A DNA stretch of 64,000 bases from Macrostomum lignano (Eukaryota): the NCBI GenBank assembly GCA_002269645.1, contig NIVC01001988.1, positions 151,635 to 215,634 on the forward strand, given 5' to 3'. The stretch's first letter is position 1. Every line of letters begins with the position of its first letter. Made by a program: the position numbers and the translations under genes. Positions 298 through 63,842 of this stretch are shown here, piece after piece. The notes under the pieces were generated by a model that was given only the letters and a program-made list of their open reading frames with translations, ran no database searches and had not been told where the DNA came from.

Positions 298-420
298 ATG
301 CTAGGCCACTCCCCAGTACAGAGGCTCCCGCACAATGGTGTGGCCACTCCCCAGCACAGAGGCTCCCGCACATGTTGGCTACGTACGAAATCGAACCGCC
401 CACCTGCACTCAACCCGCAG

Positions 421-5135: not shown

Positions 5136-5139
5136 TTCA

Positions 5140-7885
5140 AGCCGATCGCTTCGAACCTGGCTCGTTCAACTACACTGTCACCAATAGCAACAGCTCGTAC
5201 AACATGCAGCGCAGGCTGTGCCAGTATCTGTTCCCATCGGGGGCCTTCGCCGTGTTCGGCTCCACCAACGCCCTGACGGTGGACGGCATCCAAAACCTGG
5301 TCTCGGTGTTCCACGTGCCCTTCGTCACGTCGGGCATTGTGAAGGCCGAGAATCCCAAGGGCCAGGACTATATGCTCAACCTGCGGCCGCGCCACGTCAT
5401 GGCAATCATCGACACTCTGGATCTCTACAAGTGGTCCAATTTTGCTTACCTGGTCAACAGCCACGAAGGTTTGCACCGCTTCCAGGAGATCCTTCGCGAG
5501 TACCAGCGGCGCCACGTCTACAGAGACGTGAATGTACAAATCATTTACCTGTCGGATACGCGCTTCGTCTACCCGGACCTGGCCAGGCTGGACAGCCTGC
5601 TCAAGGCCGAAGATCGCAAGCACGTCGTCATCGATCTTGACCCGCCTGAGGCTGTGTCGAATTTCCTGTACCAGATCCACGAGATGGGCATGAACCGCAG
5701 GGAGTATCACTACTTGATTAGCGGCATCTCGGCTCTGGACATCGAGACCGAAGGCATGCACTATAGCGGAGTCAATGTCACTGGCTTCCAGCTGGTGAAT
5801 GAGAGCCAGGTCAATGTGAAATCCTTAAAGCAGAAATGGCTACAGCTGTGTCAGCAGAAGCGCTGGGACTGCAGCAGGGGCGGGAACAGCCTGCCACTAT
5901 ACGAGGTCGCACTTCTCATGGATGGCGTCGAGACCTTCGCCAGGGCCATCGACAGTCTGCTGTCGCGGCCCGATACTCGCAGACAAATCGAAGCCGCACT
6001 GAAGCAGCCCGCCTCGAGTAGAGTAGACTGTCTCCAGAAAGTGTACCAGTCGCGGTCCAAGCTGCTGAACCCGCGGGTGTACGCCTACCAGTACCTCGGT
6101 CCCTCCGTGCCAATCCGCACGTCCAAAATCGGGGAGCTGCTAATGCGCGAAATGTCGGCGATCAGCTTCCCCGGCTACAGCGGCCAGGTGACCTTCGACG
6201 AGAACGGCTTCCGTTCCAACTTCTCCATTCAGCTGATGGAGCTGGAGGGGACAAAGTCGTTCCAGCCGGCGGGCGGCTGGCACACCAACTTGGGACTTCA
6301 GCGGCAGCTCATCAGCTCTGGAAATGCTTCTACCGCGGCTGCGAACTTCACTAAAGTTATTCGCGTCGTCACGATCAAATCCGAGCCGTTCATCCAGCCC
6401 AGGGAAACCAAGCCCAACGAGCCCGAGCCGGTGGGCAACGACCGGTTTGAAGGCTTCTGCATCGAAATGTTTAAGAAGATGGCCGAGAGACTTGGCATCC
6501 AGTACAGGATTCACTTTGTTCGCGACAACCAGTACGGCAGGATTGACAAGAAGGGCGAGTGGAATGGAATGATTGGCGAGCTGCTGAGGAACGAGGCGGA
6601 CATCGCTCTGGCGCCTCTCACCATCACAACAGAGCGAGCTGAGTTCGTGGACTTCACCGAGCCGTTTCTTACTTTCGGTATCTCCATCATGATTAAGAAG
6701 CCAAAGAAGGAGAAGCCGGGTACGTTCAGCTTCCTGCGGCCCTTGTCACCGGAGGTGTGGAGCTACATCTTGACAGGCTGCCTGGGCGTGAGCCTCGGCC
6801 TGTACCTCTGCTCCCGCATCAGCCCGCTCGAGTGGCAGGTCGAATTCGAAAACGAGTTGCCACCGGTGCACAAAGTGACGCGCGACTTCACCGTGAGCAA
6901 CTCTTTCTGGTTCTCCTTCGCCGCGGTTGTCAATCAAGGCATCGACCTGTCGCCGCGTAGTTCGGGGACTCGCGTGGTGGCCAGCGCCTGGTGGTTCTTC
7001 ACGCTCATCATGATTGCGTACTACACAGCCACCCTAGCTGCCTTCCTCACCGTTGAGCTGCTCAGAACCCCCATTGACAGCTGGGAGGACCTTGCCGAGT
7101 CCAAGGAGATCCTGTACGGCACGCTGAACTCCGGATCAACTAAGGCATTCTTTCTCACTACAAAGCTGCCTCCGTTTGACCTCATCGGAATCAACATGCA
7201 GAAGAATGAGAAGAAGGGCCTCGGCGTCTACGTGAACACTAGCGAGGACGGCATCCGCAAGGTGCGCGAGTCCAAAGGCCGCTATGCCTTCCTGCTGGAG
7301 TCAAAGACCAACGAGTTTCATAACAACCGCGATCCCTGCGACACCATGATGGTTGGACAGCCGTTCGGCGACAAGGGCTACGCCATCGCGACGCCAAAAA
7401 AATCGCCTTTCCACGAGAAACTTAACGATGCCGTGCTGCAGCTGCGAGAGGCCCAGGTGCTCGCCCAGCTCTACAAGAAGTGGTGGATCGAGAAAGGCCA
7501 GTGCATCAGCGACGACTCCGGAGGCGGCGGCCTGTCCGCCCTGACGGTGGTGAACGTGGCCGGCGTGTTTTACATCCTGGTGGCGGGCTTGGGCATCGCG
7601 CTGGCCATCGCTTTGGTCGAGTTCTACTTCACCAACAGACGGGAGGCGGCAAAGGCCCGCCTGGACGACTCGGTGGTGACCGCGGCGGCCCGCGCTCGTC
7701 TGCTGGACACTTCGTCCGAAGGCGGCGGACTCGAACCCGCCGTCGCCAGTACGAAGGTCGGCAGTTGCCGCTGCCACCGTCACCGCCGCCTGCCAGCGTC
7801 GGAGCAACGGAAAAGAGCGGGACGACGACGAAGCGGCGACAGGGCGGCGAGAATTTGCGGGCCCGGTGCACGTGCACCAGAGTAG
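5140..7885 (+). CDS. Ionotropic glutamate receptor, AMPA/kainate-like (large uninterrupted exon; signal peptide and extreme N-terminus not found)
   Basis: ATD, S1 (YG..DKKGEWNGMIGELL..EADIALAPLTIT.ER), M1, pore loop (SNSFWFSFAAVVNQG), M3 (YYTATLAAFLTVE), S2 (YGTLNSGST, YAFLLES, KGYAIATPK), M4. The first ~50 codons of ORF 4994 are repeat-derived; 5' boundary approximate. Confidence 0.93.
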
Positions 7886-8442: not shown

Positions 8443-8765
8443 TGTAGCAGCCCAGGGGTTATTGCATCGGACTCGCGACTTGAAGGAAGGTTGGAGGTTC
8501 GATTCCCGATCTCACTGAAACAATTTGTGTCCTTGAGCAATTAGACAATTAACCCCTGCATTGCTTCAGTTCACCCAGCTGTTAAATGGACACCAGCATT
8601 AGCTGGGGTAATTGAGGGTGTGTGGTGACCCCCAGCCCTTGGACTGAACAGCCGTACGCAGCCTTCAGATGCGCTGCGCAATAGCTGCGGCTGAGCTGTC
8701 GGTTGCATATCTGGCCCAATTGGGGTAGTGTAGCTTATTAATTATTATCATTTTATTACTACTAT
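8443..8765 (+). mobile_element. tRNA-derived SINE with CORE-like central domain and (TTA)n tail
   Basis: B box GGTTCGATTCC; central TTGTGTCCTTGAGCAA...CACCCAGCTGTTAAATGG; TTA-rich tail; second copy at 22.0 kb. Confidence 0.75.
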
Positions 8766-11513
8766 TGAGAAAATATAAGAGGTACACCAAGTTAAGTACA
8801 GCTGCAGGTTGTAACAAACAAGTATTTTAATAGTTAGGAACTGATTCGGATTAGAATGTTGCTTGCACGTGTAGATTCTCTTGCTCCTGGATCTGGCTCA
8901 CCAGCATCCTCGTAACACGGATTTCTTTTGCATAAACTATAGGGCCGCGACACGCACAGATCGTGTGAATTATTTTATTAGAGAGCTGATTATTCGAAAT
9001 ACATTTACCTGCATGTGCAATTGTATACGCAAAAAATTGACCTCTTTATTCTCGTTTGGTGAATGAAAATCTCGATACTGGATACATCACCTTATATAAA
9101 GAAACAGATCCACGCGACGACTCTACATGTAGTTTTTTTGCGGAAGTTTGAAGTTTGCATGACATGAAGTTTGCGGAGGGGCACTACTAAACAGTACATG
9201 TACAGTACTACATGGCAACCGCGCGTTTCCTCATGGCCGCGGAATGGATATCCCTCCAGTTGTTGCCAAGTCAGAAAGTAGAAATCCTATACTGATTGTC
9301 CGCTTGCTTAATGGCCTCGTAAATTTACATTTACAAGCTTACATCTTCAAATTAAGCTGGAGTTAAATTTCGCTTGATCAAACTTCATCGATTTCAACTA
9401 ACGACTCAAAATAATTCGTTTTTCGAGCGCTGCAATTATAATGTCCGAGCCCTGGAGAGAATGGGCCGAATGCACGCGATATCTAAAATATTTACACAGT
9501 AAATACGATCGAGACCCAGCGTTTTTGCACATTCAGCCGCATCATTATTATAAACTTGCCCTATAGCTGCGGATCAAAGCTGTACATGTAAATCAGCAAC
9601 GCAATTGTTGATTGCACCGTTCTTCATATCGTGGAAGACCTAAAAGCTAAAATTGTCTGTCGTTTTGACAAGCTCGCATCGATCGGATCATAAGCTCAAA
9701 AACTTCATATCGTCAAAGGTGTAAACGTACATGTACAGTGCATGCACTGCTTATCACTTTTTTATAGTTCAGAATCGAAATTTACACGTATACGCACTAA
9801 ATTTTATGTCGTCCAAATTTTATAATATTGTCTGCATTACATATAAACACGTAGAGTACGCTCGAAAAATTACGCGATGTCTCATTGCTCGTTACTTTTG
9901 CACTAAACTGACTCTTATAGAGCGAAAATTCATCATATGCTTGAAATTCCGTATCGTGGAATTTGCGATAGTTATGAGCGAGCAGCAGCAGAAATGTGTA
10001 AACTGCACGGAAGTGTGCACAGAAGTGTTGCCTGAGTTGTACACGGAATTCTCGCTCGTTTATAGAGTCTGTCATTCAGAAAGCTACAAATAAGTGGTTT
10101 TTGGCAACATATATATGATCGAAATGTGGGAATTTTTTGCATTCGATGGCATAAAAGATTATGAAACAGAAACACTACCATTGTAAATTGTCCAAGCGAA
10201 TTTTTTGACAAATTACTTTCAATACTACTTCCTTCTGAGCCCTGAGCAACCACAGAATTTTTGTAAAGATACAGCTACATATTCTTCTTCTTCTATAGCT
10301 ACATAAATTACTTCTGCTTCAGGTTAGGTTAGATAAGCATATGGCCACGGCTTTTGAGCAGAATTCTTTGGCTGAATTTTTCAACCAAAAAATCAGATGG
10401 GAAGACCATTTTTAGTATATGGATATCTTGATTCTATTCATAAATTCTGAGATTCAGGCTTTGGGAAATAAATTTCCATCTTTGCAGAATTGGAAATAAC
10501 GAATTTTTACGGATTTTACAATTTACGAATCGGGTCGATCGAATTTTTAAACATATCGATATTTTACTTTTCTATCCTGGATGATGCAACTGGATTGACA
10601 GATAATGATGATTTTTAGTTAGCTAGGGACTGGGCTAGGGGTGGGCTAAGTTTGCTTATGTTACCCGAATTTGGTCAGTGCTTTGCTACTACTAACTAAG
10701 CCTTCTAGTCGTTTTTATGTAATAAACACCAAACAGGGCCTTTGACTTTTACTATGGACAACATAACTTGAATTTTAAATTAGACCTTTTCGTTACCGCA
10801 GATATCTTTTTTAAAGCAATTTAATTAAAGCAATTAATTATAAATCTAAAAATAAAATGCTAAGAATATTTCTTTTAGTCTAGCCTATTTATTTGACTTT
10901 TCATTGATATCTAGCTTTCTAGCAAATACAATCTTTTTGGCTAGGCCTATGTAATAATATATATTATCAACCATTACAATGATATGCTTGTCTCTCTTAC
11001 TATGTGTTTTAGACTTAGTCCTTGTTTTTAAGTATTTTACTAGGGCCTACCTATTGATTCCATAGACCTAGGTCTATTATAGACCTGGTCTTTTATAAAG
11101 ATGATAATTATTTATACGAAAAGCAAGTGCTATAAATAGCTAATATTTGTCTTTGAAGATGATAGACTATTTTACAAGTTAATAGTCTAGTTTAATAGTA
11201 AACTAGTAAACTAACAAGTAGGTAAATATAAAAGTCTAATATAAATACTCCTAACTCCTTTTTTCTTCTGGGATAGCCCTGTAACCAATTCAAGCACTCT
11301 AATTTTTTTAAAGCTAGGCCTAAGCACTAGGCACTACTTAAAATCTAAGCACTTTTGGCTTTGCTTTCTATTAAAATTGCTAAGTTTAATTATAACCTAA
11401 ATATAACATTTGATAAAATATACTTATTAAATGATCTTTACCTAAAAGACTAACTATCAAAGCCATTTTAAACTTTGTTCTTAGTGTCGCAAGGATGCTT
11501 CCTTCTTAATAAT

Positions 11514-11531
11514 ATCCCACCGCTGCCACCA
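11514..11531 (-). promoter_or_regulatory. Primer-binding site complementary to tRNA-Leu 3' end (two shorter copies at 11578-11587 and 11663-11672)
   Basis: Minus strand TGGTGGCAGCGGTGGGAT = reverse complement of ATCCCACCGCTGCCA+CCA, the eukaryotic tRNA-Leu 3' end. Confidence 0.8.
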
Positions 11532-11590
11532 AAAGCTGTCCCAGGGCTCTTATTTATTCTTTTGTTTAGCCTTATTAGCTGCCACCAAGT

Positions 11591-12360
11591 TGTCACAGGG
11601 GTGTCTCCTTTTACTGAAATTGTCAAAAGGCTAAACTTCCTACACTAATCTTTAAGTTGGTAGCTGCCACCAGGATTATCCTATTAATAAATTATGAGTT
11701 TATCAATCTTAGAATAATCCGAGAAATGTTTCTTAGAATTGATCTGAGTATATATCTTAGTATTTAGTCTGAGTATTTAGTCTGAGTATTATTCTTAGAA
11801 AACTATTAGCCCTTAAAGATTTTATTCCTCTGTTATTCTGGTAGCGTTCTATTTAATAATTTGGCCTGAGCGGTATTTTGGCTTACTGGTATATGTATTT
11901 CATGTACTTTGCAAGTCTTTGGGCATTACTGAGATCAGAGGGTCACAGCCTCTGGTTATTCTTACACAAATCACTTCAGATCTACTTCGTATTTTCTTAC
12001 TACTCAATGCTGCTGCTTATCAGTAGTATATACTGTATACGCTTCAGTCTACTTCACTCTTACTTCTTAAAAAGAATCAACACAGAAAACACCTCTTCAA
12101 TTAGATTTTCTCGGAACTCTTATTATTAGCTATCAACTGTTTTATTATTGAACCGCGATGCGCGAGGTTGGTTCTTCCTCTGCCAAATTCGCTTCTATTT
12201 ATACCATTTTTACTTGTAGATTAAAACAAAAATTAATTCATGAAAATAATATGAAAAATAGAAGTATTAAAACAAAAAGAAATTGCATCTTAGTTTTGGC
12301 ATAAATTTGAGTTTAACTATTTGGTAACTATTTTAAAGCAAATCGGGAAGGGCCTTTACA
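11591..12360 (-). mobile_element. Putative LTR (element 1)
   Basis: Minus strand: PPT AGGGGAGGCAGG (12373-12362), then TGTAAAGG... at 12360; ends ...GTGACA at 11591, 3 nt before a PBS copy. End boundary tentative. Confidence 0.55.
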
Positions 12361-12712
12361 ACCTGCCTCCCCTAAATAAAAAATTTTAAACAAGGTTACT
12401 ACTATTAGTAAGCGAGTGCAAAATTTTTGATCTGATGCAAGAGAAGGTGCAATAAAACAACTAAACAGTGAATAAAGAATTGAACTATGGAGTTATCACG
12501 ATACATGAATACTAGGCACAAAACTATGTAAAAGAAAAATAAAGCACTATGTACAGCACAAAAAGAAGTAGGCAAAGAATAAAACGCTAAATCATGTATA
12601 GACACTAAGTGAATAAAGCAGAAAGAAAACTAGTAAACTATTAGAGAACAACATAGAAAAATACAACAGAGATGACTAAAAGCATGTCAGTAACATAATG
12701 AAAAAGGCCTGC

Positions 12713-13771
12713 TTAGAACTTGCAAGGGTTCGGGAGATCGCGAAAATAGGGCCATCCTAGGAGGCCAAAAATCCAACGAAACTCAATGTTTAGTAGGCGT
12801 CGCTGAGTTACCTGCGAGTCAGCCCTCATAACGCGCTGGAGCTCTTCGGCGATGTGCTGGAGAAGCGCCACTGCCTCAGTCGATGAGAAAGTTCGCGCAG
12901 TGCTCTGATGGCGGCCCAAGCCTGCGAACGTTGCGGCAGAGCTTGATCCAGACGCAGGTGGCCGATGCGCTGCAAGTATTGCATCAGGCCGAAGCGAACC
13001 CTCTCGACCGGTTCGCCTGTCTCGAGGAGTCACTGAGCCACCTCCTGGTAGCTTCCGGCGAGCTCTGGTCGTGGCGGTCGTGGTGCAACGGCGGCCTGCT
13101 GACGAGGGGCAGCAGCGGCAGCCTGCTGGCAAAGCGCAGCAGCGTCGGCAGCCTGCTGGCGAGGCGCAGCAGCGGCGGCAGCCTGCTGGCGAGGCGCAGC
13201 AGCGGCGGCAGCCTGCTGGCGAGGCGCAGCAGCGGCGGCAGCCTGCTGGCGACTGGCGAGGCGCAGCAGCGGCGGCAGCCTGCTGGCGTCGCCCTGACGG
13301 TGGAGCATTTGCTGGAGGCTGAAGCTGAACCGTCCGACGCTCGGGTGCAGCGCTGCCGGCTGCCGATCCTTGACTCGAGGGTGCCGCGTAGACTCGCACA
13401 GGGGCAGAGTAGGATGGTAGCCCGCTTCGGCGGTGTCGGGCCATTCACCTGCAGTCGCTGGCTCGACGTTGGCGACGGTGGCCTCGGCCGCTTGCTGGAG
13501 TCTCCTGGCAGTTTCGGTCGTGTAGAACAACGCAATGGTGCCTCAATCTCCGCTGATGCTGACGGTCTTTCTCGCGGACTGACGCGCTCGGGGCTGGCGG
13601 AGTCGGCGGTCTTGGAGCTGGCGGCGGAGTCGGCGGTCTTGGAGCTGGCGGCGGAGTCGGCGGTCTTGGAGCTGGGGCTGGCTGTCTTGGAGCTTCGTCT
13701 CCTGATAAGTCGCTATCCGACAGGGCTCCGCCCAGCAATTCTTCTAAGATATTATCTACGTAATTGCTCAT
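12713..13771 (-). pseudogene. Decayed ORF of unknown function associated with LTR element 1 (Pro-rich N-terminus, Ala/Gln repeats, conserved C-terminal domain)
   Basis: GC-rich island starting MSNYVDNILEELLGG, with stops and frameshifts. The C-terminal ~100 aa (13008-12713) align with the ORF at 59442-59744. Confidence 0.65.
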
Positions 13772-14582
13772 AATTCTTACAATGAAATTCCTTACGTTCT
13801 AATAGAGAGCTAATTACTGTGAAGTATGGGGTTCTGAGAGCTCTATGGTGTTTCGTATTTATTTGCGGCCAGCCGAAAAACTGGACCGCATCGTTGTGTT
13901 CGCGCTTTCGCTTTCGAAGGGTTTAATGGGGTCACGTGTCCGTCAACTATAGCGGCTCTCTAGCGTTCGCTTCGCGGGCTCTCATTGGCTCAGAGCAGCG
14001 CACCGTTGCTAAGCGTTGCTAGGATTTTTACTGACTTCAGATTTCTTCACACAATTCTCTCATTTCTACTACTAGTAATGCGCAGTGTTTTTGTATTTTT
14101 TTTTTATTTTTTTCAAAATCTTTTTGTAAAAAGATTCATAGCAAACATATTTGTCTGTGACAATTTTACTTTAATAAAGCGATTTTTTAAACTGAAGAAG
14201 GAATTGGTTCTTGAGAAAAAGTTTTTAACTTTAGTTTGGAATTTAGTAAATGGATTGGACAAGAATAGAAATGGTAGTCAATTTAGGCTTAGCCTATTTG
14301 CATTAGGCCAATTGACATTGAGTTAGCAAAATAAAGAAATAGTACTCTATTATCGCCTTGATTGATATTCTGTTCCACATTATATATAATGCACTATTTT
14401 TTCTATTAACTAGTATTCTTGATAACAAGTAAGTAGGTAATTAAACTTTTCAGAGAGCAGCACTTTGGCCGAGCAGCAGTGTAGTGGCGCGCTAAAGCAA
14501 AGGTGGTTTTCTAACCCAGGCGATAGCAAAGGGTTCAGTTTTCCTGCCAACCTTTGTTCTGCAATGACTCCATCGCTGCACA

Positions 14583-17378
14583 ATGAGTACCACAGCAACT
14601 GATAACAACAATTTAGCAGAAGCAGAGACACAGGAGTTTCCTGCTAAAGCAAAAACTAAGAGCTGCGAAAGCCTCGACATAAAACAGTCTTTGTCGCAAA
14701 GTCCCCCCAAAGTTGTGGACGAGCTGACAGATTCAAAGTCAAAGCAAAGCTGTTTGTCAAAGTCTGAACTCGAACGGAAGCGCAAAAGCGTATCAAAGCT
14801 GGACAAAGGCGACCTGCGTCACCAGATCGACTCGCACAGCAAGCGGCACCGGGCCACTAAAGAGGCAATAGCAGACAATGAGGCCTACAGTTCTGCGTCG
14901 GAGCGGGGCAGCTCTAAGCCCCGCGTCGATTCTAACAAAGATAAAAGGACAAAAAAGAAAAATCGTCACAAAAAATCATCAGCAACTCGAGAGACGGTAG
15001 ATAAGGAGGATAAAAAAAGCATCGAGAAGTCGCAAAAAAGTCTGCACAGGCATCGGTCGAAGGCATCAAAAATCGAGCGGCAATCGCGACCCCTTGAGTC
15101 AAAATCTAGGTCAAGGTCGCCCTCCAAGCGAAGATCTTTTTCAAAGCCGATGGCCAAACCGCCAGATTCTCCAAGTCGGTTAAAGTCGGGGTACGGGTCG
15201 AAGTCAAGACAACAAGCGCGGCCAGAATCTAAGTCAAAGCATAGACAAAGAGAGAGGTCAAGGTCCAAATCTAAGCGCCAGTGTAGGTCAAGGTCAAAGT
15301 CTGAATCTTCGCGTCGATTAAGAAGGTCAAGGTCATTGTCCAAATCACACCAGCGATTGAGGTCAAGGTCGCGTTCGGGGCCCAGATTCCGGCCGCCGGT
15401 GCAGAGGCGCCGATCCAAGTCAACATCCCGACGACAGCATCAAGCAAGGCGGCGGTCGATGTCCAGAAGAAGGTCAAGGTCAAGACGGCGCTCTCGACCC
15501 CGATCGCCTTCAAGGTCAAGGTCGCGATCCAGGCCAAGGTATTCTCGACTGAGACAGAAATCTGAATCGTCCGGCAACAATTGGCGCAATCGTCATGCCA
15601 GATCGCCGCCCAGATCAGCTGCCAGAAAGTCTCGAGACCGCTCATCGTCTTTGTCCTCAACAGGTTCCTCGTCTTCTGACGGCGGTTCCTCTTCATCGTC
15701 AGCTGATGTGAAGCCAATAGTGACTTCGCGTCCGCCGCCTCCGCCTGTCAGCGATGGCTTGACGGTTGCATTTCCCTCGCACGTCGGCTTGTACCCGGCC
15801 GCCAGCTACTATATGCAGCAGCCACCCCTTGGCTACTACCATGGTCAGCAGTACGCCTACGACCCTATGCAGGCTTATCAGCAGCAGGCGGCTTATTCCG
15901 CAAACCCTGCAGTTTATCAGAACGGCTACCAGACGGCAGTGGATCCCAATTACTTCCCCGGCTATAGCGCCGCAGCTTACATGTACGCGCAACCGCAGGC
16001 TGTGCAAGAAGATCCTACTCAGTACGCAGCTCCGCTGGACCCTGCATTTACAGCTAATGGACAAGTCGATGAGACTTCAGTACCGCCGCCCCCTCCTCCA
16101 CCGCCACCGCCGCCTCCGCCGCCTGAAGACGCCGAGAAGCCGAAGCCTGCAGCGGCCGCCACCGCCGACGAGGCGCCGCCGCAGATTGACGGCCAGTTGT
16201 CGCGATATCGCGAATTCTTCGCCAAGCAGTTCGGCAATTCGTCAGCTGGATGCGGCGCTGGCGCCGGCGGCGACCTTCAGCAGGAAGCCACCACCAACGG
16301 GAAGGTCGCGCCGTCGTTAGGCCGCGCCCTGAAGCCGCACTCGACTTTCGCCTACTTTCTAGAGAAGTTTCAACCAGTGTCCACCGAGGCTGATCAGACA
16401 TCCGACGCTACTCCAGGGCCTCCTGCAGTCGACAGTCAGGAGTCCTTGAAGCCGGAGACGGTTAGAAATAGCGGCAAATCCAGTCCACCGAAGCCGGAGG
16501 AGCCGCAGCCGTCCACTGCCAAAGCGGACGTCTCGAACGATGTTGCTCCCAGCTTCCCCGGCTGCGAGCCGGGCGGGCCGCCGCCGCCAAAGTACGAGCA
16601 CATTGACTCCAACGTGTACCTGCGCAGCCAGCCCAAACTGGCCTTCCGGGCCTGGCTGTGCGACTGCACGCTGCCCAGCGAGGAAGGGCAGCTGAACAAA
16701 GACTACAAAGCCTGCACAGACGAGTGCATGAACCGGCTGCTGCAGATCGAATGCACGGACCGGTGCAACTGCGGCGCCTACTGCACCAACAATCAGTTCG
16801 CCAACAGGCGCTATGCTCCGCTCACTCCGTTCTACGCCGGCCCGGCCAAAGGCTGGGGCCTCAAAACCACCGCCGAAGTCCCGGCCGGCGCCTTTCTCAT
16901 CGAATACGTCGGCGAGGTGATCGACTTCGCCCAGTTCAAGCGGCGCATCATAGCCTACGAGAAGAGCGGCTGCCCGCATCACTACTTCATGTCGCTGGAG
17001 TCAGACGTTATCGTTGACGCCGGCGCCAAGGGCAACTGGGCCCGATTCGCCAATCACAGCTGCTCGCCGAACTCCGACATCCAGAAGTGGACAGTTGGCC
17101 GGCAGCAGCGGGTTGGCTTCTTCGCACTGCGCGACATTCCCGCAGGCGAGGAGGTCACCGTTGACTACGGCTTCGTGCAGTACGGCCGAGAGCTGCAGAA
17201 GTGCTACTGCAACAGTCCGAACTGCACAGGCGTGATGGGCAGCCGCAGTCAGCAGCTGCAGGACCGCGTGCAGGCGAGGGACTCCTCCGCCCGCGACCGC
17301 CAGGTGGCCCGGCTACTCCGGCTGGACCGGCTGGGTTCGCCTGATGACGCTCGGTGTCTGGTGCGGCTGCTTGTTCAG
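14583..17378 (+). CDS. SETD2: Set2/SETD2 H3K36 methyltransferase, exon 1 (RS-rich N-terminus, AWS, SET, post-SET)
   Basis: CTDECMNRLLQIECT, KGWGL, FLIEYVGEVI, HHYFM, GNWARFANHSCSPN, QKWTV, DYGF, KCYCNSPNCTG; donor CAG|GTGAGA at 17378/17379. Confidence 0.93.
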
Positions 17379-17387: not shown

Positions 17388-18620
17388 ACGAGTGAAGCTT
17401 ATGAGGCGCTTAGTGTAGCTTATTGTGAGGCGCTTAATGTAGCTTATTGTGAGGCGCTTAGTATAGCTTATTGTGAGGCGATTAGTGTAGCTTATGAGCG
17501 CTTAGTGTAGCTTATGAGGCGCTTAGTGTAGCTAATTGTGAGGCGCTTAATGTAGCTTATTGTGAGGCGCTTAGTGTAGCTAATTGTGAGGCGCTTAGTA
17601 TAGCTTATTGTGAGGCGATTAGTGTAGCTTATTGTGAGGCGATTAGTGTAGCTTATTGTGAGGCGATTAGTGTAGCTAATTGTGAGGCGCTTAATGTAGC
17701 TTATTGTGAGGCGCTTAGTGTAGCTTATTGTGAGGCGCTTAGTGTAGCTTATTGTGAGGCGCTTAATGTAGCTTATTGTGAGGCGCTTAGTGTAGCTTAT
17801 TGTGAGGCGCTTAGTGTAGCTTATTGTGAGGCGATTAGTGTAGCTAATTGTGAGGCGCTTAATGTAGCTTATTGTGAGGCGCTTAGTGTAGCTTATTGTG
17901 AGGCGCTTAGTGTAGCTTATTGTGAGGCGCTTAATGTAGCTTATTGTGAGGCGCTTAGTGTAGCTTATTGTGAGGCGCTTAGTGTAGCTTATTGTGAGGC
18001 GCTTAATGTAGCTTATTGTGAGGCGATTAGTGTAGCTAATTGTGAGGCGCTTAATGTAGCTTATTGTGAGGCGCTTAGTGTAGCTTATTGTGAGGCGCTT
18101 AGTGTAGCTTATTGTGAGGCGCTTAATGTAGCTTATTGTGAGGCGCTTAGTGTAGCTTATTGTGAGGCGCTTAGTGTAGCTTATTGTGAGGCGCTTAATG
18201 TAGCTTATTGTGAGGCGATTAGTGTAGCTAATTGTGAGGCGATTAGTGTAGCTTATTGTGAGGCGCTTAATGTAGCTTATTGTGAGGCGATTAGTGTAGC
18301 TAATTGTGAGGCGATTAGTGTAGCTAATTGTGAGGCGCTTAGTGTAGCTTATTGTGAGGCGCTTAATGTAGCTTATTGTGAGGCGCTTAATGTAGCTTAT
18401 TGTGAGGCGCTTAATGTAGCTTATTGTGAGGCGATTAGTGTAGCTAATTGTGAGGCGATTAGTGTAGCTAATTGTGAGGCGCTTAATGTAGCTTACTGCG
18501 AGGCGATTAGTGTAGCTTATTATGAGGCGCTTAGTGTAGCTTATTGTGAGGCGCTTAGTGTAGCTTATGAGGCCGTTACTGTAGCCTTTGAAGCGTTTAG
18601 TGCAGCTTATTGTGCGCTTA
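17388..18620. repeat. 24-bp intronic minisatellite (~50 copies)
   Basis: Unit GTAGCTTATTGTGAGGCGCTTAGT. Confidence 0.95.
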
Positions 18621-18849
18621 GTGCAGCTCTGCGTTTAAAACGCCCGACTCTCACGCCAAAGTCTGTATGCCGCCGCCACACTTATTTGGGACTCGAGTGC
18701 ACGAAAATTGGCCTGAAGCCTGGTTCTCACCCTAGAAAATGGGGAAGTCAGTGTCACTGTGCACTTTGAGTGAGTGCTCAGGGGTCAGCGGAATGGGCGT
18801 GATGGAGCAAATATAGCCAATAAAAGTACACAATGTTGCCGCTATACAG

Positions 18850-19873
18850 GAGAGCCTGGACTGGGACACCCGAATGCGGCTGGTCCGCCTTGTTGGCAAC
18901 ACGGACTGCTCGGCCAGCCTGCAGGCGCTTCGCCGCTGTCACGCCGTCGACGTGCTTTCCTCATACCTGCGCGAGCTGGTCGCTGACGACGCCGCCTCCG
19001 GCGCCTCCGTCCCGGCTGACGATGGCTCGTCAAATGTCCAAGCGACTGGTAGCGCGCAGACGCTGGTGCTGGCGTTGGCCCAGCTGCCCGTGGCCTACAC
19101 CCAGCATGTGGCTCAGGCCATGCCGCTGCTGGAACGCCTGGCCGACTGCGCCGCCGCCCGCAGTCTGCTGGACCGGTGGCGCCAGCTGCCCGGCCAGCCG
19201 TTCGGCGGCCTGCGGATTCCCAAGAAGCGCCCGGAGCTGCGCCAGACGCCCCCGGACCCTGACGACCAGCCGGAGACGCCGCCGCTACCGACATCGCCGG
19301 CTTCTTCGTCGGCGCCACCGAAGGTGCAGTCGCTGATGCCGGAGCTGCCGCCGCCGCCGCCGGCCCGGCCTTCAACTCGGCGGCTGCCCAAGGCGGAATT
19401 CCGCCGCCTGTTCGAAGCCTACGTGGCCTTCGACGACGAGCAGCGGAAGGCGGCCGCCGAAGCCGAAGCTGCCGCAGCCGCCGCCGCCTCGGCCTTTGCG
19501 AAGCCGTCGCCTGCCGACCTGTTGAAGGACGATCAGGCGATGGAGAAGGTGATCGGCCTGCTGTCCAAGTTCCTCAACTACCTGCTGAGCCACGGCGACC
19601 CGCAGTGCGCCCTGACCGACGCCGAGCTGCTCTCCGTAGCGGAGGATCGCCGGCTGCTGGGTCTGCTGGAGTACATCAAGAATCTGGATGATGTCAGCAT
19701 CATCACCGACAAGATGGAGCTCGTTCCGGCCGCTGTGCAGCCTCCGCGCAGCCGCCGCCGCTGCAGTCGCCGAGCGAGGAGGAGCGAGTGAAATTTGTTG
19801 AACAGCTGCACCAGCTGATTGTTGAATGCGTGGACGGAGTGTACGCCTCCGGCTGCGTGGACGAGATGGTCAG
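18850..19873 (+). CDS. SETD2: Set2 exon 2 (helical domain to start of SRI-like domain); apparent 1-nt frameshift near 19735
   Basis: Acceptor TACAG| at 18849 joins LVRLLVQ|ESLDWDTRMRLVRLV, matching the SETD2 post-SET helical region. The shifted frame from ~19743 gives EEERVKFVEQLHQLIVECV; donor AG|GTAGT at 19873/19874. Confidence 0.8.
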
Positions 19874-53104: not shown

Positions 53105-54410
53105 TGCTGTTGCTGCAAGTTGTGGATGAAAGTACATAGAATAATGCAGAAATTCAGAGCTGCATTTCCCAATAACTTCTAGGATTGCCTCCTCTCTATG
53201 ACTTTGCTACCCATAATCAGGGTACTTTAATGGCAACTTATGTTTAATACTCATGTCATTGTATAAATGTGCTTTTAATAAATACATTTCTGTTGAAATC
53301 AAACATGTATCAATGCAAAAAATGTAAAAAACATGGTGTGCACCATTGCCAATCTCAGTATGCCAGAAGGAAATTTTGGGCCTTGTCTAGTTCAATAACT
53401 CTTGAAGATGACAATAAACATGTACCAATCACTAAAATACATGAGGCACTTACAATTGATACTATGTCAAGTCATTCTGAATAACTGAATAAGTGGATAC
53501 AGTTGCATTAAAACATGACATGATATCATATTTGTATTACCATTCAATAATGAAAATAATTTTATTTAAAATAGTATGATACATAAGTTACTTTGATATA
53601 TACAATAATAAAGAGTTTTTGCTTAACTCCTATCATTCTTTTGAAGTTTTTAAATGTGCAATTTTGTAGACATAAGCATCATTAATACTTTAGCAGAATG
53701 GGCGCCCCCACCTTCCCGCTGTGTCCCTCCGGGACAGCCCTGCAGTTAAATCATTAATACTTCTATAAGATATTCTTACATACAAAGCATGCTGATAATA
53801 GTGAATTTGTCTGTGTTGCAGCATTGGTCAATTTAATTTTCATTTGAGATAAAGTTGGAGTTAAAAAAAGACGATTTTATTGTTATGTCAGCAGAAGACA
53901 AATCATCAGATTTTGAGTCTGATTAGAGCATGAGGTAAACAGCAGCGACAAAAAAGCAGACAAAATGTATATTACTTGGCACAATGGCATGACCACTATG
54001 CACTGCAGTACTAGTAGAACAAAATTTGGACTATCAAACCAAGATGGCCTATCTACTAGGGATCCATAACTATCAGATCCACATTATTGTCTTAACTTTC
54101 TTGAAGCTAAGCAGCCTAAGTGCAATTGTCATATGCTTTGTATCAACCAATCACCATTTGAAAATTATCAATACATATGGCATAAGAATGAGACTACAAA
54201 GCCTCCCAAGTTTGCTTAAGAGAGCACCCTTATATCCAAAACTTGCATACTGCAGATAAGAAACATTTGCCTTTATGCAAGAACTTGACACTTGAAGTTG
54301 CACAAGGCAGTTGTAATAATATTAGTGGCTATCTATGCTTTTCTTTTTTACTATTACTAATACTATTTGAAATACTTGGGGTTTTTCTCGGGGTGGCCTG
54401 GTAGGTCTTT

Positions 54411-54610
54411 GAATCCCACTGCTGCCACCAGTGAAATAGATGGGGTTTTCTTGGGGTGGCCTGGTAGGTCTTTGAATCCCACCGCTGCCACCAATGAAGT
54501 GGAATGGTGTTTGCTTCCCGGATTAGGCCCTTGCGGATTACCTTAAACCTCGGCCTCTTCTTCTTGGGAAGTTCTCTCAACTCTCAGTAGCGTAGGTAGT
54601 GCTGCCACCA
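54411..54610 (-). promoter_or_regulatory. Cluster of three tRNA-Leu PBS copies (54601-54610, 54474-54493, 54411-54430); the last two lie in a 63-bp tandem duplication
   Basis: TGGTGGCAGCGGTGGGATTC is a 20/20 complement of the tRNA-Leu 3' end; the sister copy has 1 mismatch. Confidence 0.82.
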
Positions 54611-55500
54611 GTTCCTTCAGGTCTCGGCCCTCGATGAGGTGAGCTTCCCGTCGGAACGAAATAAACAAGTCAACGAACTCAGCACAGCGTGTAGATTTGC
54701 AGATTAATGAACAAGGCGTCCTGATCAGCAGATCCCCGCCGGGCTCAGGGGTGGCTGGGAAGGCAGTGTTAGCCTCCCTTAGGCTTGGGCTTTAGTGGGG
54801 TCTCAGTCAGACCAGTACAAACGGATTCAGTACGCAAAGGGCACTTAGTTAGACACTGACGCACACGGGATCTTAGTGAATTCTCCGCAGATAAGAAGCC
54901 ATTTCCTTGACGGAAACAAGGGGAGAGGGGTCCTATTTATAGTCGGGAAACACCCACGCACAAGACCTCGTGACTTGTTCTATTTTTAGAACTGACGTCA
55001 CTTGAGATCTCGAGGCAGGGTCTCAGTGCGCGCAAGACCTCGTGACTCGTTCTATTTTTAGAACTGACGTCACTTGAGGTCTCCGGCCAGAGTACACGTG
55101 GCTGTGACTCAGTTGCTATTTTTAGCAACATGAGTCACTCCTCTCCTTAGAGAAGGGAGGGGTCCAAAAGCACGTGATTCTCCCGGTAAACAGGGCCAAC
55201 GAGTGCAGTAAACATGTTTACTGCACTTTAGGACTCGAAGAACGCAGAGTCTGTCATGTGACTTGCTCACAAGACAGAGGAAAACGGGACGGGAACGAAA
55301 CAGAGACAGCCCACAGCAGAGAAGCTGAGGGCTGAGAACAGAGACGCAGAAGGGCAGAACAGGCCAAGGGCAGCAACAGACGGGCTAAGGGGGGGGGGGG
55401 TGGGAAGCTGACCAGCGGCAGACAGCAACCCAGGGCGAGGGCGAGGGAGACTGCTGACAAAGTGGGACGCCTAACATCAACTAGCAGATCACTACATATT
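54495..55500 (-). mobile_element. Putative LTR (element 2) with TATA box and 72-bp enhancer repeat; 5' boundary uncertain (55137 or ~55496)
   Basis: TATAAATA (54941-54934); duplicated modules at 54961-55006 and 55033-55078; ends ...TTCA one nt before a PBS. Confidence 0.6.
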
Positions 55501-58419: not shown

Positions 58420-59441
58420 GATACATGGCCATGTATACCATTTTCCCACCTGACCCAACATAATGGGCTTAAATAGTTTGATGGTTGGTTATTTAGGATT
58501 ATTATTATATTTTATATTTACTATACTACCATTGGGGTTAATATAATAAATAATAATTCTTACGGTGTTAGTTATGGTATGTTACATATATACTAGGTTG
58601 GTTCGCAACATTTGTCAAGAAAAAATCGCCACTTAATTGCTACCAATCGCCAGCGATTTGCTGGCGGCTTTTCAAGAGGGAAATTCTTGTACTTGTATCT
58701 CAACATTTGTTTTACTGAAATACATTTGACATTTAAAACTGGTAAAAAGCCTGTCGCCAAGTTAACCTGTTGCCAAATTTACTGGTTCCCTTCTAGCCTA
58801 CCTATCAAGTCCAACTAGTGCACTTGCAATAGAGAAGCTGATACCTAGCTTGAATAATATCATTAGTGGCATTGTGCCACTCTCTACTAATAGTGGCATC
58901 AGCAAGGTGGCATCTTTGACTTTTATGCCAACCATGACAGATGGCAAGCCCATGTAAATGGGTGAAAAATTTTATTTACCACTAACTTTGGCTTTGTGAA
59001 AGATGAATTACAAGCAATTAAACAATCTGGCTAATCTAATAGGCATGGTCTGTTAGTCAGCCAGCCAATTACAACATTGCTACTAGATAATTATAATCAT
59101 AAAGCAATTTTAAGAGCAAAAAATATGGCTAGCCCAAGCTGCCAGACCATAAGCACTTAGACCTTTTATATTAATCAAAACACAAATACATTGGTTCCAT
59201 TTTGTTGTAAACCCTAAAAATGTTTTTATGCTAATGATAGATCCAAATATTTGGATTTGGAATCTGAATCCAAAAAGATGTTTTACTTTTTTAGAAATAC
59301 AAATGTTTTGGATTTGGAAAAATGTTTCCAAATATTTTCAAATATGTCAAATATAAAAAAATCTAGAAACCTAAACAAATTCATGTTCATAGAAGAAATA
59401 AAACTTTTGAAATAATAAAATATATTAAAAAACTGTGACAG

Positions 59442-59744
59442 GTAGAAAAGCTGCAATTCCACATTGAGCAATATGCGCTGAAGGTAGCATATCATTGGGC
59501 TGACACGCGACAATGCTACCCTCAAACATTGCAAGTCTGGCCACACCTGAAGTTCCTAAGGGAACAATTTAGCCACCAGGAAGCCGTTGCTATCCTCTTA
59601 GATGTCACTCATCATCTCCAGAGGGCCATAAAAGTCAGCCTGCCACCCTCATTAGTGATATTGGACGAGGAGTATCATTGGTTTTTCGCCCAGATTGGTT
59701 GGCCATATAATCGCAATCTCCTGGAGCCTTGCAGGTTTATTTGA
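59442..59744 (+). CDS. Unknown ~100-aa domain associated with LTR element 3 (exon-like, preceded by TGACAG)
   Basis: Open frame VEKLQFHIEQY...GWPYNRNLLEPCRFI*; homologous to 13008-12713 on the minus strand. Confidence 0.6.
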   Translation, partial: VEKLQFHIEQYALKVAYHWADTRQCYPQTLQVWPHLKFLREQFSHQEAVAILLDVTHHLQRAIKVSLPPSLVILDEEYHWFFAQIGWPYNRNLLEPCRFI

Positions 59745-60070
59745 ACTGTTAATGTGAACTAACTATTGCATTGCCTTTAATAATAGTTTGCTTTTAATAA
59801 TACTATTGCCTTTATAATAGCTTGCTTCCATAATAGTTTTGTTTTATAATAGTTTTGCTTTATAACAGTTTTTCACTTAATTATTGTCTGCCTTCATAAG
59901 TTTGCTTGTATTTTGTACAATCTTTTTTATGCACTAATTTGCTAACTTAGCACCCATATATATCTTTTCTTTTGCACTTAGCTGTGCACTTTTCACCTAT
60001 TTTACATATTGATATCAATTTTTCATTGTATAATAGTATTTTGTTCAAACTTGATATTAAGAGGAGAAAT

Positions 60071-60812
60071 TGTGGTAGTGCTTCAATACTGTAATAATGT
60101 GGTAAGTGGGTGCCTCCCACTGAACTGTTTGAATTTTGTCCTATTTTTGGTCGTTAATTTGTTGTTCATCCCGGGTTTGGCCCTCCTATGTCCACCTTAA
60201 GGTGCTGCCCTGACGTCACCCTCCGTCATCTACCGCTCCCTGGTTCTGGCCCCCGCCCCCAGTTCTGGCCTTTGTGCCCCTTTATTTGTTCATTGTTAAT
60301 TTTGCCCATCTTCTCTATCTTAATCTTTGTTTGGCCCTAATTATGTCTGCAATGTCCATTTTAATTAACATTTATCCCTTTTTATGTTCGTTATGTGCCA
60401 CTGTATGGACTGTTCTATAGTATTTATAGCTTGATGTGAGCACCGTCAAAATAGTTGTCCTTTGTTTGTTTAGGTTTTGTTTGTTGCTATTCCTCCTTTA
60501 CATTTGAACTGTTAACTTCTTATGCCTTAATACTTGGATACCCAATTACTTGCAAGTTAATCAACAACTAATATTGTCTAATTTATAGTCGCCTTCGGCA
60601 CCGCCTTGCGTCTCGTAATATTTTTCACATTAGTAATAATTATCTACAACTTATCCTACTTTACTAATAAACAAATTCAACTTGTTACTTGTTGCTTATT
60701 TAAGACCATAGCTTATCTTTTAGAGTAATTTGCCCGTGGGGCATAAAATAACCCAGTCTCATCTCAAAGAAAGCTCTAAGACTTCTCAACATTCCGTAAT
60801 ACACAAATTACA
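60071..60812 (+). mobile_element. Putative LTR (element 3), flanked by PPT upstream and PBS downstream
   Basis: PPT AAGAGGAGAAA (60059-60069); TGT...ACA; PBS TGGTGGCAGCG at 60814-60824; CRE TGACGTCA inside. Confidence 0.62.
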
Positions 60813-61401
60813 GTGGTGGCAGCGCTACTCTACTGGAAGTAATCAGTCAAGCATTTGAGGTATATCAATTCGGTGTCCAAGGACCCTATCTGAACACTTG
60901 TGCCTAACGAAGACTGCTTGTCTACAACCAAACTACCCTCTACCCAGAATTGAGGACCCTGGCAGTCGGAGTACCAAGAGAAGTTTCGTTGAGATTTGTC
61001 TGTGCAATATTTCCAGATTTAATTCATGCAAATTCAACATTGGTGGCAATTCAAAATAAAACTGCCCCCTCATTGGTGTCAGCAAACTAGCTAAAATAGA
61101 TTTATTGCCAAATCCCTCACCCCCTTACTTTTCTTTCTCTGCCCCTACCTCAATAATATACAATTTCCTAGAAAACTGAATTTGGGCAAAATAAATATTT
61201 TGCACCATGTATTTTGTTTTACTACATGAAATATTTGGGGAAATATTTTTGTTATAAATGTATTAAGAAATCAAGGGTATATATAAGAGTGATTTTGCAA
61301 TAAATAAACTCTGTCTATTAACTGTGAACAAGTATTGCAAACAAAAATAAGCAGTTTAATCTATATATTTCAAAGTCTTTTGAGTTTAATAGTGACTTAT
61401 T

Positions 61402-62676
61402 CAGTGTTGGGCACTTCCGTTACGAGTAACTTGTAAATGGTAACGCAAGTTACTTTTTCGTAAAGCGTTCCTTACGCAAGTTACTTTCCTATTTTGGTAA
61501 CGGAGTAACAGTAAGTTACTCAAATTTCAGAAGTCCATTACAGTTACTTTGCAACAATCGCAATATTTAAATTTAAAACTGATATGCTTAGCTATTACTC
61601 CAGTTGTCACATTTTTAGCATTTTTCATTCCTAAATTCAAAACTAAGTGAATAATATCATACGGTATTACGCTGTAATTAATAAAGAAATACTTGAAACA
61701 TGTTTTTACTTTGTTATTTTCGGTAAAATATTTTTGCTTTTCATTTTTAAGTTAATAAAAATATTTTGTTTAGTTCTTAGAAACAAAAAACTAAAGAAAT
61801 AAATTCATCTGTAGTCTCCACAAATCTACTCAGTGATCGACGTAGCCAGGAATTTTAATTGGGGGGGGGGGCGGGTTGGCCTGGCTGGCCATGCCTCATG
61901 CCATTGCCACTTTTAGCGCCGCAGGCACTCATTTTAGTGCCGCAAGCACTTATTTAAGCACCGCAAGCACTCATTTAAGTGCCGCAGGCACTCATTTAAG
62001 CGCCGCAGGCACTCAATCGCCTCATGGTTTTTGGTACCCGCTACGCCCAACCTTACCCCCCCCCAGGTGGGATGTCTTGCAGGTAGGGTGAAGTTGCCAC
62101 CCCAACAATTGTTAAGGCGGCCTCCCTGGCTACACCACTAAAGTCCACTGGCACTGCACTGCACTGCACAATAATTTAATATTATGATAATAATTGAAAA
62201 TAAATAAAAAGACTAGTAAAGCAGACTATAGAGTGGAGTAAAGCCAGGTACTTATTACTAGCAATGTATTATTAAGGACAACTGAAGTTACGTTAAGTTG
62301 TCCTTGTGTATTATAACTTATAATGTTATTAAAAATTAAATTGCGTTTGCCTTTAACGTTTCTGACCTTCAGCTTCTTTTCTTTTTACGGAAAGGGCCTA
62401 AAGTGATTAAAATTTAATACAGTTACTGAAATTAATGTTGTTTTATTCTTCCTCCTGGCTTTCGCGATCATTTGTGCTGTTCCAGCGCATTTGCAATGTT
62501 AAAAAAGCAAAAAATTTTGTTAATAACATAGGTAACGGAAGTAAGTAACAGAAATAACTTAAAAGTTACCAGGTTTTTGTATAAAGTTACTAGGCTAACA
62601 TAAGTTACTTTTTAAAAAGTGGTAACTTAAGTTACAATAATGCAAGTTACTTTTTTGAGTAACTTGCCCAACACTG
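61402..62676. mobile_element. Non-autonomous hAT element
   Basis: 12-bp TIR CAGTGTTGGGCA; perfect 8-bp TSD GACTTATT (61394-61401, 62677-62684); subterminal GTAAC/GTTAC repeats. Confidence 0.92.
61831..62140. mobile_element. MITE nested in the hAT element
   Basis: Inverted ends (C)GTAGCCAGG / CCTGGCTACACCACT, poly-G, internal 21-bp repeat; TSD not resolved. Confidence 0.65.
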
Positions 62677-63842
62677 GACTTATTCATTTTAAAAAGACTG
62701 AGAAATGATTCTAAGAAATTTGCTAAGAAAGGGAATTGGGACTAATTCTTAGAGATATACTAAGAGAGGCGCCATGACCTTCTAGTCTCGGTAGATGCCC
62801 GATTAGGACTAACTAGGCCCCCTAACTCATGTACCAGTACTAGACCGCTTAGGCCATATATAAGATACTACCAGAGCTATACATAAGATGCTACCAGAGC
62901 CATACATAAGATGCTACCATAGCTATACATAAGACGCTACCAGCCAGAACATTACTAAGAACGCTACCCAAAAATATATGAGATTCAAACAAACAGTTAG
63001 GATTTAAAAAGGCAGAGCTTAAGCCCTATCACAGCCAGTACCAGCAGTAGGATATTTGTAAGGACAGGACCAAGAAGCCTATCACAATAGTAATATAGAC
63101 ACAACTGCCATGTCTTTAAGTGTGGTGTATTTTTTATCAAATGGTCAATTTACCACAAATAAAAATGAGACTAGAGTAGGCCTATAGACATTAGACTTAG
63201 ACATAGTCATAAACTATAGTCTATAGTAGTATAGAATAGGTAGGCCTAGCCACTTAGGCCTATGTTGAAGAAAATCTCAACAGAGTAAGCCCTAAATATT
63301 TCAATATTTAGTTAATTAGATCCATTTGATTTGAATAATAATTAGGAAATTATGCTAATAAACACCAAGCATGTAGGTGCTTTTTGAAATTTAAAAGCAC
63401 AATGTGCTTTTGCCTTTTTGCTTTTCATATCATAGAAATTATTATGACATGACAATTGACATGTTATATTTATAATACACTAATAGAGAGCAATGATCTG
63501 AATCTAACCTAGGTCTATCTATAATATATTTAGATCATCTAGGCTAAGTCACCAACTTCAGTAAGGTAATGTGGTCCACAAATCTGCATTCAAAAAAATG
63601 GTACTTTAAAAAGCTAAAGTCACAGGTCGCAAAGTCTTTGAAATCCACTTAGAAGATTTAAATGTCAAAGTCCGTCGTCGTCTTAGTTTTCGAAGTTAAT
63701 TTTTTTACATATAAAAACAAATCACTTTTTAGTTTACTTCCTGTTAAACTAACAAAATATTTAAAAAATAAAATTCGTATCTGAATTACAATATCGAATG
63801 CCTGAGTTAGCTTTGTTCATTTGTTTTAACGGGCTACCATGG

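Follow-up and report, generated by a model that had tools for sequence, protein, structure and literature searches.

The 64,000-nucleotide stretch of Macrostomum lignano DNA studied here (the window; contig NIVC01001988.1, positions 151,635 to 215,634) carries a retrotransposon-like unit, element 1, in which a broken accessory open reading frame (ORF) is followed by a polypurine tract (PPT), a long terminal repeat (LTR) and words resembling a tRNA primer-binding site (PBS). Our favored reading, in which our confidence is about even, is that element 1 represents the 3' end of a Ty3/Gypsy-type Macrostomum family of ordinary order, or in a sub-case a 3.2-kb solo LTR, whose LTR has grown stepwise at U5 past older PBSs. 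This copy would be dead, and its gag and pol lost or supplied in trans. What is new here is an unannotated flatworm accessory gene family and the PBS ladders in three LTRs, while the order of the element itself is of a known kind. Coordinates are positions in the window, and element 1 is read on the minus strand (Table 1).

Element 1 has the TG…CA LTR, the PPT directly before it and the tRNA-type PBS of a full Ty3/Gypsy element, but not the two LTRs around gag and pol; no second LTR, gag or pol was found beside it in the window, and it can therefore only be a fragment, a solo LTR or a derivative. An earlier note on this DNA had described the same layout, and all of its parts (broken ORF, PPT, 770-bp TG…CA segment and PBS-like words, without gag or pol) were located in the sequence, which upholds its view that the element is of LTR type and carries an accessory gene of its own. 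It had also argued that there was no room for pol, and this is correct, since a gene encoding AWS and SET domains has its ATG only 812 bp from the start of the ORF (a CCAAT word at 13988 is ~215 bp from it). The TGT at 12360 lies 353 nt past the stop of the ORF, and its PPT-TGT junction is one of five matches in a scan of both strands of the whole window. Promoter and poly(A) words sit close to the 5' end of the LTR, and both the TATA at 12203 and the AATAAA at 12146 have counterparts in a decayed copy, element 4. We infer a U3 of ~185 bp, with the remainder of the LTR being mostly U5, and the true 3' end of the LTR may lie beyond 11591.

Table 1. Positions in the window of element 1 and of the units compared with it
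Feature	Positions	Strand	Remarks
Element 1, TG that may be the outer 5' end of a 3.17-kb unit	13772..13781	-	10 nt ahead of ATG; chance-level 4-bp duplication
Element 1, accessory ORF, broken	12713..13771	-	ATG 13771, stop ending 12713, 1,059 nt
Element 1, T-rich 3' untranslated stretch	12374..12712	-	faint likeness to element 2 counterpart
Element 1, PPT	12362..12373	-	11/12 purines, then 1 nt, then TGT
Element 1, core LTR, TG…CA, 770 bp	11591..12360	-	TATA at 12203, AATAAA at 12146
Element 1, PBS-like word 1, 10 nt	11663..11672	-	inside 770-bp segment, nearest CA 22 nt off
Element 1, PBS-like word 2, 10 nt	11578..11587	-	3 nt after CA of 770-bp segment
Element 1, full 18-nt PBS, presumed tRNA-Leu type	11514..11531	-	5 nt after a CA
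Element 1, AT- and TAG-rich DNA after PBS, assigned to the element	10810..11513	-	TAGGCCTA palindromes; right end candidate 10609
Element 2	59435..61083	+	5'-cut homologous ORF 59439-59744, untranslated region, purine tract, TG…CA, PBS-like words
Element 2, purine tract	60059-60069	+	only 4 G; under PPT-scan threshold
Element 2, LTR	TG 60071…CA 60812	+	
Element 2, PBS-like words	60814, 61041, 61074	+	each 1 nt after CA
Element 3, unrelated TG…CA unit, solo-LTR-like	54368..55496	-	4-bp target duplication, AATAG-rich tract
Element 3, PBS-like words	54610 (10 nt), 54493 (18/18), 54430 (17/18)	-	54493 and 54430 stand at the head of 63-bp repeats
Element 4, decayed copy of element 1 LTR, last PBS and downstream DNA	61106..63748	+	start approximate

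PBS-like words and growth of the LTR at U5

The exact 10-nt PBS word occurs seven times in the window, three times in element 1, once at 60814 and three times at 54.4-54.6 kb; 0.001 occurrences are expected by chance per 1-kb segment, and two or more words arose in 0/2,000 simulations. The earlier claim that tRNA-Leu PBSs follow the LTR stands insofar as these clusters are far above chance, but only the site at 11531 is a full 18-mer, which recurs at 54493, and the word at 11672 lies inside the 770-bp segment. We take the full 18-nt site to be of tRNA-Leu type. This assignment is suggested by a word match with PMC4558846 rather than by comparison with a Macrostomum tRNA: a 9-nt Leu PBS is given there for cestodes, and the probe primer for the ta-TRIM internal region holds the same 10-nt word. 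The word was not found in the supplements of PMC12801592, which cover six families with rows partly shown. The six short words have 9-13 or 8 of 18 matches, nearly all of them 5', and keep 0-3 of positions 11-18. Since cestode elements use 8-9-nt Leu PBSs, 10-nt words can be former working PBSs, and by their pattern of matches the short words appear to fit such former short sites better than random decay.

A CA, one nucleotide and then the PBS form the normal junction between an LTR end and its PBS. In elements 1-3, five of nine PBS-like words follow a CA at a distance of exactly 1 nt (two of the five represent one duplication), where the background is 5-6%, and each of these elements has three words per LTR, although their LTRs do not align outside the PBS. 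When folded as RNA, the PBS ladder gave a z of -2.05 (4/200 shuffles). ARAGORN found no tRNA gene and Rfam gave no match at gathering score, with models that do not extend to decayed A/B boxes. Helenus, for which the test feature is tRNA-derived sequence in the LTR, was considered and set aside.

Element 3 provides the case for this genome that a terminal repeat can enclose PBS words. Its right end (CA) is in exact register with the ends of the 63-bp repeat units, and its start falls on the sharp edge of an AATAG-rich tract that is present on both sides of the unit (11 words per 50 nt outside versus 0 inside; 6 versus 1). A blind scan for its duplication gave 2/460 pairs, and when the right end is fixed by the register, the 4-mer precedes one of ten TGT starts, with 0.15 expected. 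Because this duplication-bounded element encloses three PBS words, terminal repeats here can end past PBSs. The LTRs of elements 2 and 3 gave no alignment (124/300 shuffles).

In LTR retrotransposons, the 3' end of the LTR is set by the tRNA priming site and the 5' end by the PPT. Under our favored reading, a template switch during reverse transcription would duplicate the junction of LTR end, PBS and leader; tRNA-Leu would then prime at the downstream PBS copy, the minus-strand strong-stop DNA would carry the older PBS and its spacer into both LTRs, and integrase would use the new CA. Repeated rounds would leave a ladder of old LTR ends, and any 3' or solo LTR would then seem to be followed by a PBS. 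Element 1 would thus consist, in order, of a gene in the ORF3 position, an untranslated region, the PPT and a long 3' LTR, with its upstream part lost, or, should its true start be the TG that precedes the ATG by 10 nt, of one giant solo LTR.

The layout had been said to recur at 59.4-60.8 kb. Element 2, which lies there, bears this out for the ORF, of which the piece at 59439-59744 is 41% identical to that of element 1 (E 1e-12, and E 3e-7 in a second comparison; it aligns with two frames), and for the spacing (327 versus 353 nt from stop to TG, and 743 versus 688 nt from TG to the first PBS), but element 2 is cut within its ORF and the two LTRs do not align (score reached by 35/100 shuffles). 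The similarity of the 3' untranslated regions is weak, being matched by 1/100 and 6/300 shuffles. Scans for a target duplication of element 2 stayed at chance level (43/4,620 and 9/651 pairs). A likeness between the stretches that lie upstream of the two elements (5/100; 14/300 shuffles) was rejected, as it was not the top window (62 versus 64). CRE-like TGACGTCA words are present in the U3 parts of element 2 at 60211 (+) and of element 3 at 55072 and 55000 (-).

Element DNA had also been said to run on past the PBS, and this is confirmed by element 4, the second copy at 61.1-63.7 kb. When 12 region pairs were compared, two stood at 0/100 shuffles, both against 62687-63750. The matching stretches of element 1 are 12314-12184 (to 61173-61297; 89/138 columns, 2/300 shuffles, with the TATA kept), 12001-11716 (to 62726-63004; 181/308 columns, 0/200 with four null models), the surroundings of the PBS (to 62999-63098; 3/300 shuffles) and 11514-10810 (to 63053-63748; 429/785 columns; 1, 2, 0 and 1 of 200 shuffles). 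The match is collinear, on the same strand and the top of 240 windows, with a reverse-strand control at 26-41/200. As the second copy includes the post-PBS DNA, the comparison argues that the DNA past the PBS is element sequence. This sharing is firm to about 11310 and weaker beyond. The TAGGCCTA palindrome lies 209 nt from the PBS in element 1 versus 219 nt in element 4, and TAGG(C/T)CTA occurs seven times in the window, three times at 10942-11322 and four times at 63177-63517. Since an AT-rich island at 29133-29273 (-) also beats the null against 10827-10693 (94/145 columns, 0/300 shuffles), the sharing is less certain distally than over the first ~220 bp; the island may be compositional or another decayed copy. 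Comparable TAG-rich DNA is found elsewhere in the window, at 14.2-14.5, 29.1-29.4 and 55.5-55.8 kb, and the TAG-rich, CpG-poor composition shifts near 10600.

Element 4 has no PPT or ORF ahead of it, and a ~140-bp block with PBS words 1-2 is missing from it. Its last PBS, at 63036-63053 (+), keeps 12 of 18 positions, and four of its six differences from element 1 are G to A. In the post-PBS DNA, TpA is high and TpG and CpG are low; a deamination signature in this PBS and the DNA after it is possible, and a tally of substitutions, made to look for a strand-specific signature or one like that of repeat-induced point mutation, was not decisive. No end of element 4 was set by a target duplication above chance, and a candidate duplication at 61106/63909 was rejected because it lies within another repeat. 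A short repeat family common to 55697-55774 and 63853-63893 (82% over 39 nt) masks the far end. Element 4 is split by a non-coding insertion of 1,275 bp at 61402-62676 (+), presumably hAT-like, whose inverted ends match perfectly over 12 bp and which is flanked by an 8-bp target duplication. Nested in this insertion, at ~61839-62136, is another element, with 21-bp repeats and inverted ends that are imperfect.

Several of these results favor growth at U5. The layout is present in two of two ORF-bearing elements, which is expected of a property of the LTR and not of a rare accident; one PBS word lies within the 770-bp segment, and elements 1 and 4 differ by the block that holds words 1-2. Other points weigh against it. 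The gaps from word to CA in element 1 are 22, 3 and 5 nt. The last two steps of element 3 are 45 bp, while element 1 would need a U5 extending at least 220 bp, and probably 700-900 bp, past its intact PBS, and competition for priming is to be expected from an intact PBS that lies within the LTR. Element 3 has no homology to element 1 or 2 and hence serves as an analogy only. Neither for element 1 nor for element 4 does a duplication above chance level mark where the unit ends; for element 1, 6/522 pairs were found from the outer starts (chance level) and 0/138 from the inner TG. Furthermore, element 4, with its TG start, no PPT, a PBS and AT-rich DNA, resembles an ordinary 5' LTR and leader, no copy linked to gag/pol was seen in the window, and the function of the accessory protein is read from motifs only.

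Alternative origins of the layout

The earlier note had held that an LTR with both flanks implies a tandem junction, an integrated circle or a permuted unit. This is not established, as element 3 encloses PBS words and one word of element 1 lies within the LTR; a PPT before and a PBS after an LTR are by themselves no proof of a tandem junction or a circle. The 'inside-out' description is probably a misreading of the LTR end, and a junction, a circle and a permuted unit are possible yet not the simplest explanations. No tandem neighbor adjoins element 1 in the window.

The alternative that survives best, although we regard it as rather unlikely, is that element 1 is the relic of a shared-LTR junction. 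Unequal recombination between a 3' LTR and a 5' LTR would have joined two elements whose outer parts were later deleted; the LTR would be ~770-850 bp long, the TAG-rich DNA would be the 5' leader, and element 4 would be a normal 5' end. Such an origin fits the sharing of element DNA on the PBS side over 220-700 bp and the TG of element 4 without a PPT ahead, and precedents exist, since tandem elements sharing an LTR by ectopic recombination have been described (bioRxiv 10.1101/158386) and tandem ta-TRIMs are known in cestodes (PMC4558846). However, it requires two independent junctions (elements 1 and 2) within 64 kb, both trimmed on each side, whereas no second LTR or repeat unit was found adjoining either element, and it leaves element 3 and the three PBS words per element unexplained.

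A broader form of our reading, which we offer as speculative and think improbable, is that a Macrostomum LTR lineage rebuilds its terminal repeat in both directions. U5 would grow by re-priming, and a plus-strand start further upstream would have drawn a whole lineage-specific regulatory gene into U3; the product would be an LTR of 3.2 kb that carries the gene (TG 13781…CA 10609) and spreads it as solo LTRs, or else a permuted one-LTR unit. If this were true, the PBS ladder would be an ordered record of LTR growth, and the four-helix protein described below would be a regulator placed head-to-head with the promoter of a host SET-domain gene.

It is less likely than a junction relic that element 1 is a permuted non-autonomous unit or an integrated one-LTR circle, that is, a member of an LTR-PBS-leader-ORF-PPT-LTR family of which 3.17-kb circles opened between leader and ORF, giving TG 13781…CA 10609 with a 4-bp duplication. 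A complete-length ORF does begin 10 nt after the TG, composition does shift near 10600, and both of the two ORF-bearing elements show the layout. The 4-mer flanking TG 13781 recurs at 10609 or 10585, but with 58 CA ends chance would give 0.33 matches of this kind, and TAG-rich DNA like that of the proposed leader is found at other places in the window. In addition, element 2 begins inside its ORF and element 4 has none, so that a shared outer end is not seen; one-LTR circles lack integrase ends, and the span from TG 13781 to CA 10609 reads equally as a giant solo LTR. A patchwork of host pseudogene, LTR fragment and chance words, or a chimeric assembly, is very improbable. In its favor, nested repeats are dense in the window, the ORF breaks could include sequencing indels and the relatives of the ORF are annotated as host genes. 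Against it, order and spacing recur together with an ORF of 41% identity, PBS words cluster far more than chance would allow and a collinear second copy is present.

If the ladders do record growth of the LTR at U5, stepwise accretion would be a testable route to longer LTRs, with three cases in 64 kb whose LTRs are mutually unalignable, and annotation that takes the PBS as its anchor would put LTR ends in the wrong place. Among the papers listed by phrase searches on multiple or duplicated PBSs in open-access text (25 of 178 in one case), none describes PBS ladders in LTRs, and the listings for single-ORF non-autonomous tRNA-Leu elements and for tandem, circular or permuted LTR forms likewise gave nothing on such ladders. 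M. lignano is tractable for transgenesis, which makes the choice of primer and the role of the accessory protein accessible to experiment.

The accessory gene and its protein family

The ORF of element 1 is GC-rich, with frame changes near 13690, 13400, 13300 and 12890, an internal stop at 13030-13032 and internal tandem repeats of 27 bp and 30/37 bp; its breaks could in part be sequencing indels. A HMMER search of 1.84 billion representatives returned three matches at E up to 0.001. These were the M. lignano hypothetical protein PAA73844.1, which is 89-97% identical to pieces of element 1, an intact M. lignano hypothetical protein of 349 amino acids (PAA77797.1/PAA83213.1), and a contig protein with one cluster mate. 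Among these representatives the family was detected only in Macrostomum and in other contigs, and the annotation treats the relatives as hypothetical genes of the host. An exact look-up of four ORFs of the window gave no match. A comparison of elements 1 and 2 gave differences per codon position of 26/21/32 over 57 codons and 18/18/26 over 39, and different codons stand behind 21 of 38 identical residues. Because third positions differ most, the protein must have been constrained. The ORF belongs to a real gene family.

The protein of element 1 has an acidic LxxLL-like N-terminal helix, a basic KRP patch, a disordered middle and a conserved C-terminal domain of ~100 amino acids. The intact relatives share an EAPLR…KRP motif and this domain, as well as, by eye, the acidic LxxLL-like stretch, for which the pairwise test was too weak to confirm the likeness; no long hydrophobic stretch, of the kind that the signal peptide and transmembrane helix of an Env-type ORF3 would give, is visible in them by eye. 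AlphaFold predicted four helices for the C-terminal domain (pLDDT 83.9, pTM 0.77), with most of the remaining protein at low confidence. Searches for a known family or fold gave little: Pfam had nothing below E 0.1 for five family members, the best sequence matches in PDB were at E 0.9 and 0.19, the ESM Atlas gave no usable feature match (structure rows at TM 0.39-0.51), and Foldseek against PDB and BFVD gave no match at E 0.001. The best fold match, AppA SCHIC (Z 8.2, root-mean-square deviation 2.8, 88 aligned), was level with helical bundles unrelated to it. The protein gave no signal of a capsid or zinc knuckle, and capsid was absent among the fold matches listed, which leaves a capsid possible. 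A phage tblastn search gave no match, a word-based search with the element 2 piece as query found no homolog among longer proteins, and an alignment-based search recovered only two of its own members; no longer fused homolog was found among proteins of 612-2,000 amino acids, which is a weak test. From the motifs and by analogy with the CERV protein of Cer1 (see below), the product may be a nuclear adaptor, most likely aiding transcription or RNA export of the element. The ORF lies head-to-head with the AWS+SET gene across 13782-14583, with a CpG-rich patch between them, and it could be read from the promoter of this host gene.

Comparison with known elements and other features of the window

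LTR elements account for 21% of the genome of M. lignano (PMC5730564), in which 137 LTR families have been curated, mostly Mag and Gmr1/Osvaldo (PMC12801592). The method of the latter survey starts from reverse transcriptase, and pol-less units would therefore be missed; the terms PBS and ORF do not appear in its main text. It is common for an ORF to lie between pol and the 3' LTR, as in bdelloid families (PMC5408684). Element 1 is most like Ty3/Gypsy (Ty3/Mdg4) elements with a gene in the ORF3 position (PMC5408684; M. lignano Mag, CsRN1 and Gmr1/Osvaldo, PMC12801592) in its TG…CA LTR, the PPT 1 nt before it, the tRNA PBS and a sense ORF upstream of the PPT, and the 4-bp duplication seen in element 3 is a further likeness. 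Unlike full elements of this type, it has no gag/pol or second LTR, its ORF has no Pfam family or clear fold, and there are three PBS words per LTR end; assignment to a clade needs the reverse transcriptase that element 1 lacks.

Among flatworm elements, in cestode LTR elements an 8-9-nt tRNA-Leu PBS is separated from the LTR by 4 nt, the PPT lies 3 nt ahead of the LTR and duplications are mostly of 4 bp (PMC4558846). The cestode ta-TRIM, with its candidate helper lennie, is like element 1 a flatworm LTR unit with a tRNA-Leu PBS of the same starting word a few nucleotides from the LTR end, and mostly has 4-bp duplications, solo LTRs being common (PMC4558846). In contrast, its LTRs are ~198 bp long, its ORFs do not exceed 120 codons and one PBS is described for it, whereas the LTR here is at least 770 bp long and accompanied by a gene of ~350 codons. 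By definition, TRIMs (terminal-repeat retrotransposons in miniature) are units of <1 kb with two LTRs and no long ORF (PMC10886601), whereas element 1 is at least 2.9 kb long with a 1-kb ORF and one LTR. The shared-LTR tandem elements (bioRxiv 10.1101/158386) likewise have a PPT before and a PBS after the LTR, but here there are no flanking units and the layout recurs in a second family.

For the accessory gene, the comparisons concern position or gene content. Sag of mouse mammary tumor virus (MMTV) and nef of human immunodeficiency virus (HIV) are accessory genes in the U3 or 3' position. The ORF of element 1 is alike in this position, as an analogy only. The zebrafish element bhikhari reportedly has one protein gene. 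Single-ORF elements like it resemble element 1 in having one protein gene with no pol seen, and differ in that the element 1 protein shows no capsid or zinc-knuckle signal; the bhikhari ORF has been called Gag (PMC13269885). Cer1 of C. elegans carries CERV, likewise a lineage-specific, non-Gag, non-Env nuclear accessory gene (PMC10309623), an analogy without a sequence or fold link.

The window also contains other retroelements. Between elements 3 and 2, at 55814-58420 (+), lies a 3' fragment of a Ty3/Gypsy element with the end of a reverse transcriptase, RNase H, integrase (stop near 57187), a PPT and a short 3' LTR from 58248; its best PDB match is Ty3 Gag-Pol (E 8e-40), and it has no PBS ladder. 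Broken ORFs like those of a non-LTR retrotransposon, with endonuclease and RNase H domains, lie at 41407-44793 (+). The stretches 8444-8761 and 21996-22158 form an inverted pair of a short dispersed repeat (~84% in matched pieces) with a B-box-like word, resembling by eye a short interspersed element. Long minisatellites are found at 2326-3323, 3952-5021, 17402-18628 and 19904-20876 (periods 62, 28, 24 and 30, respectively) and at 22942-23633, 24289-25817, 30261-30841 and 52218-52810 (periods 34, 23, 16 and 22, respectively), some apparently inside genes. Host genes in the window are represented by a weak match to DUF6221, below cut-off, at 18817-19791 (+), an EF-hand exon at 52913-53104 (-), which we take to be centrin-like, a DHFR domain at 295-1050 (+), and an ionotropic glutamate receptor with an uninterrupted frame of 964 codons at 4991-7885 (+).

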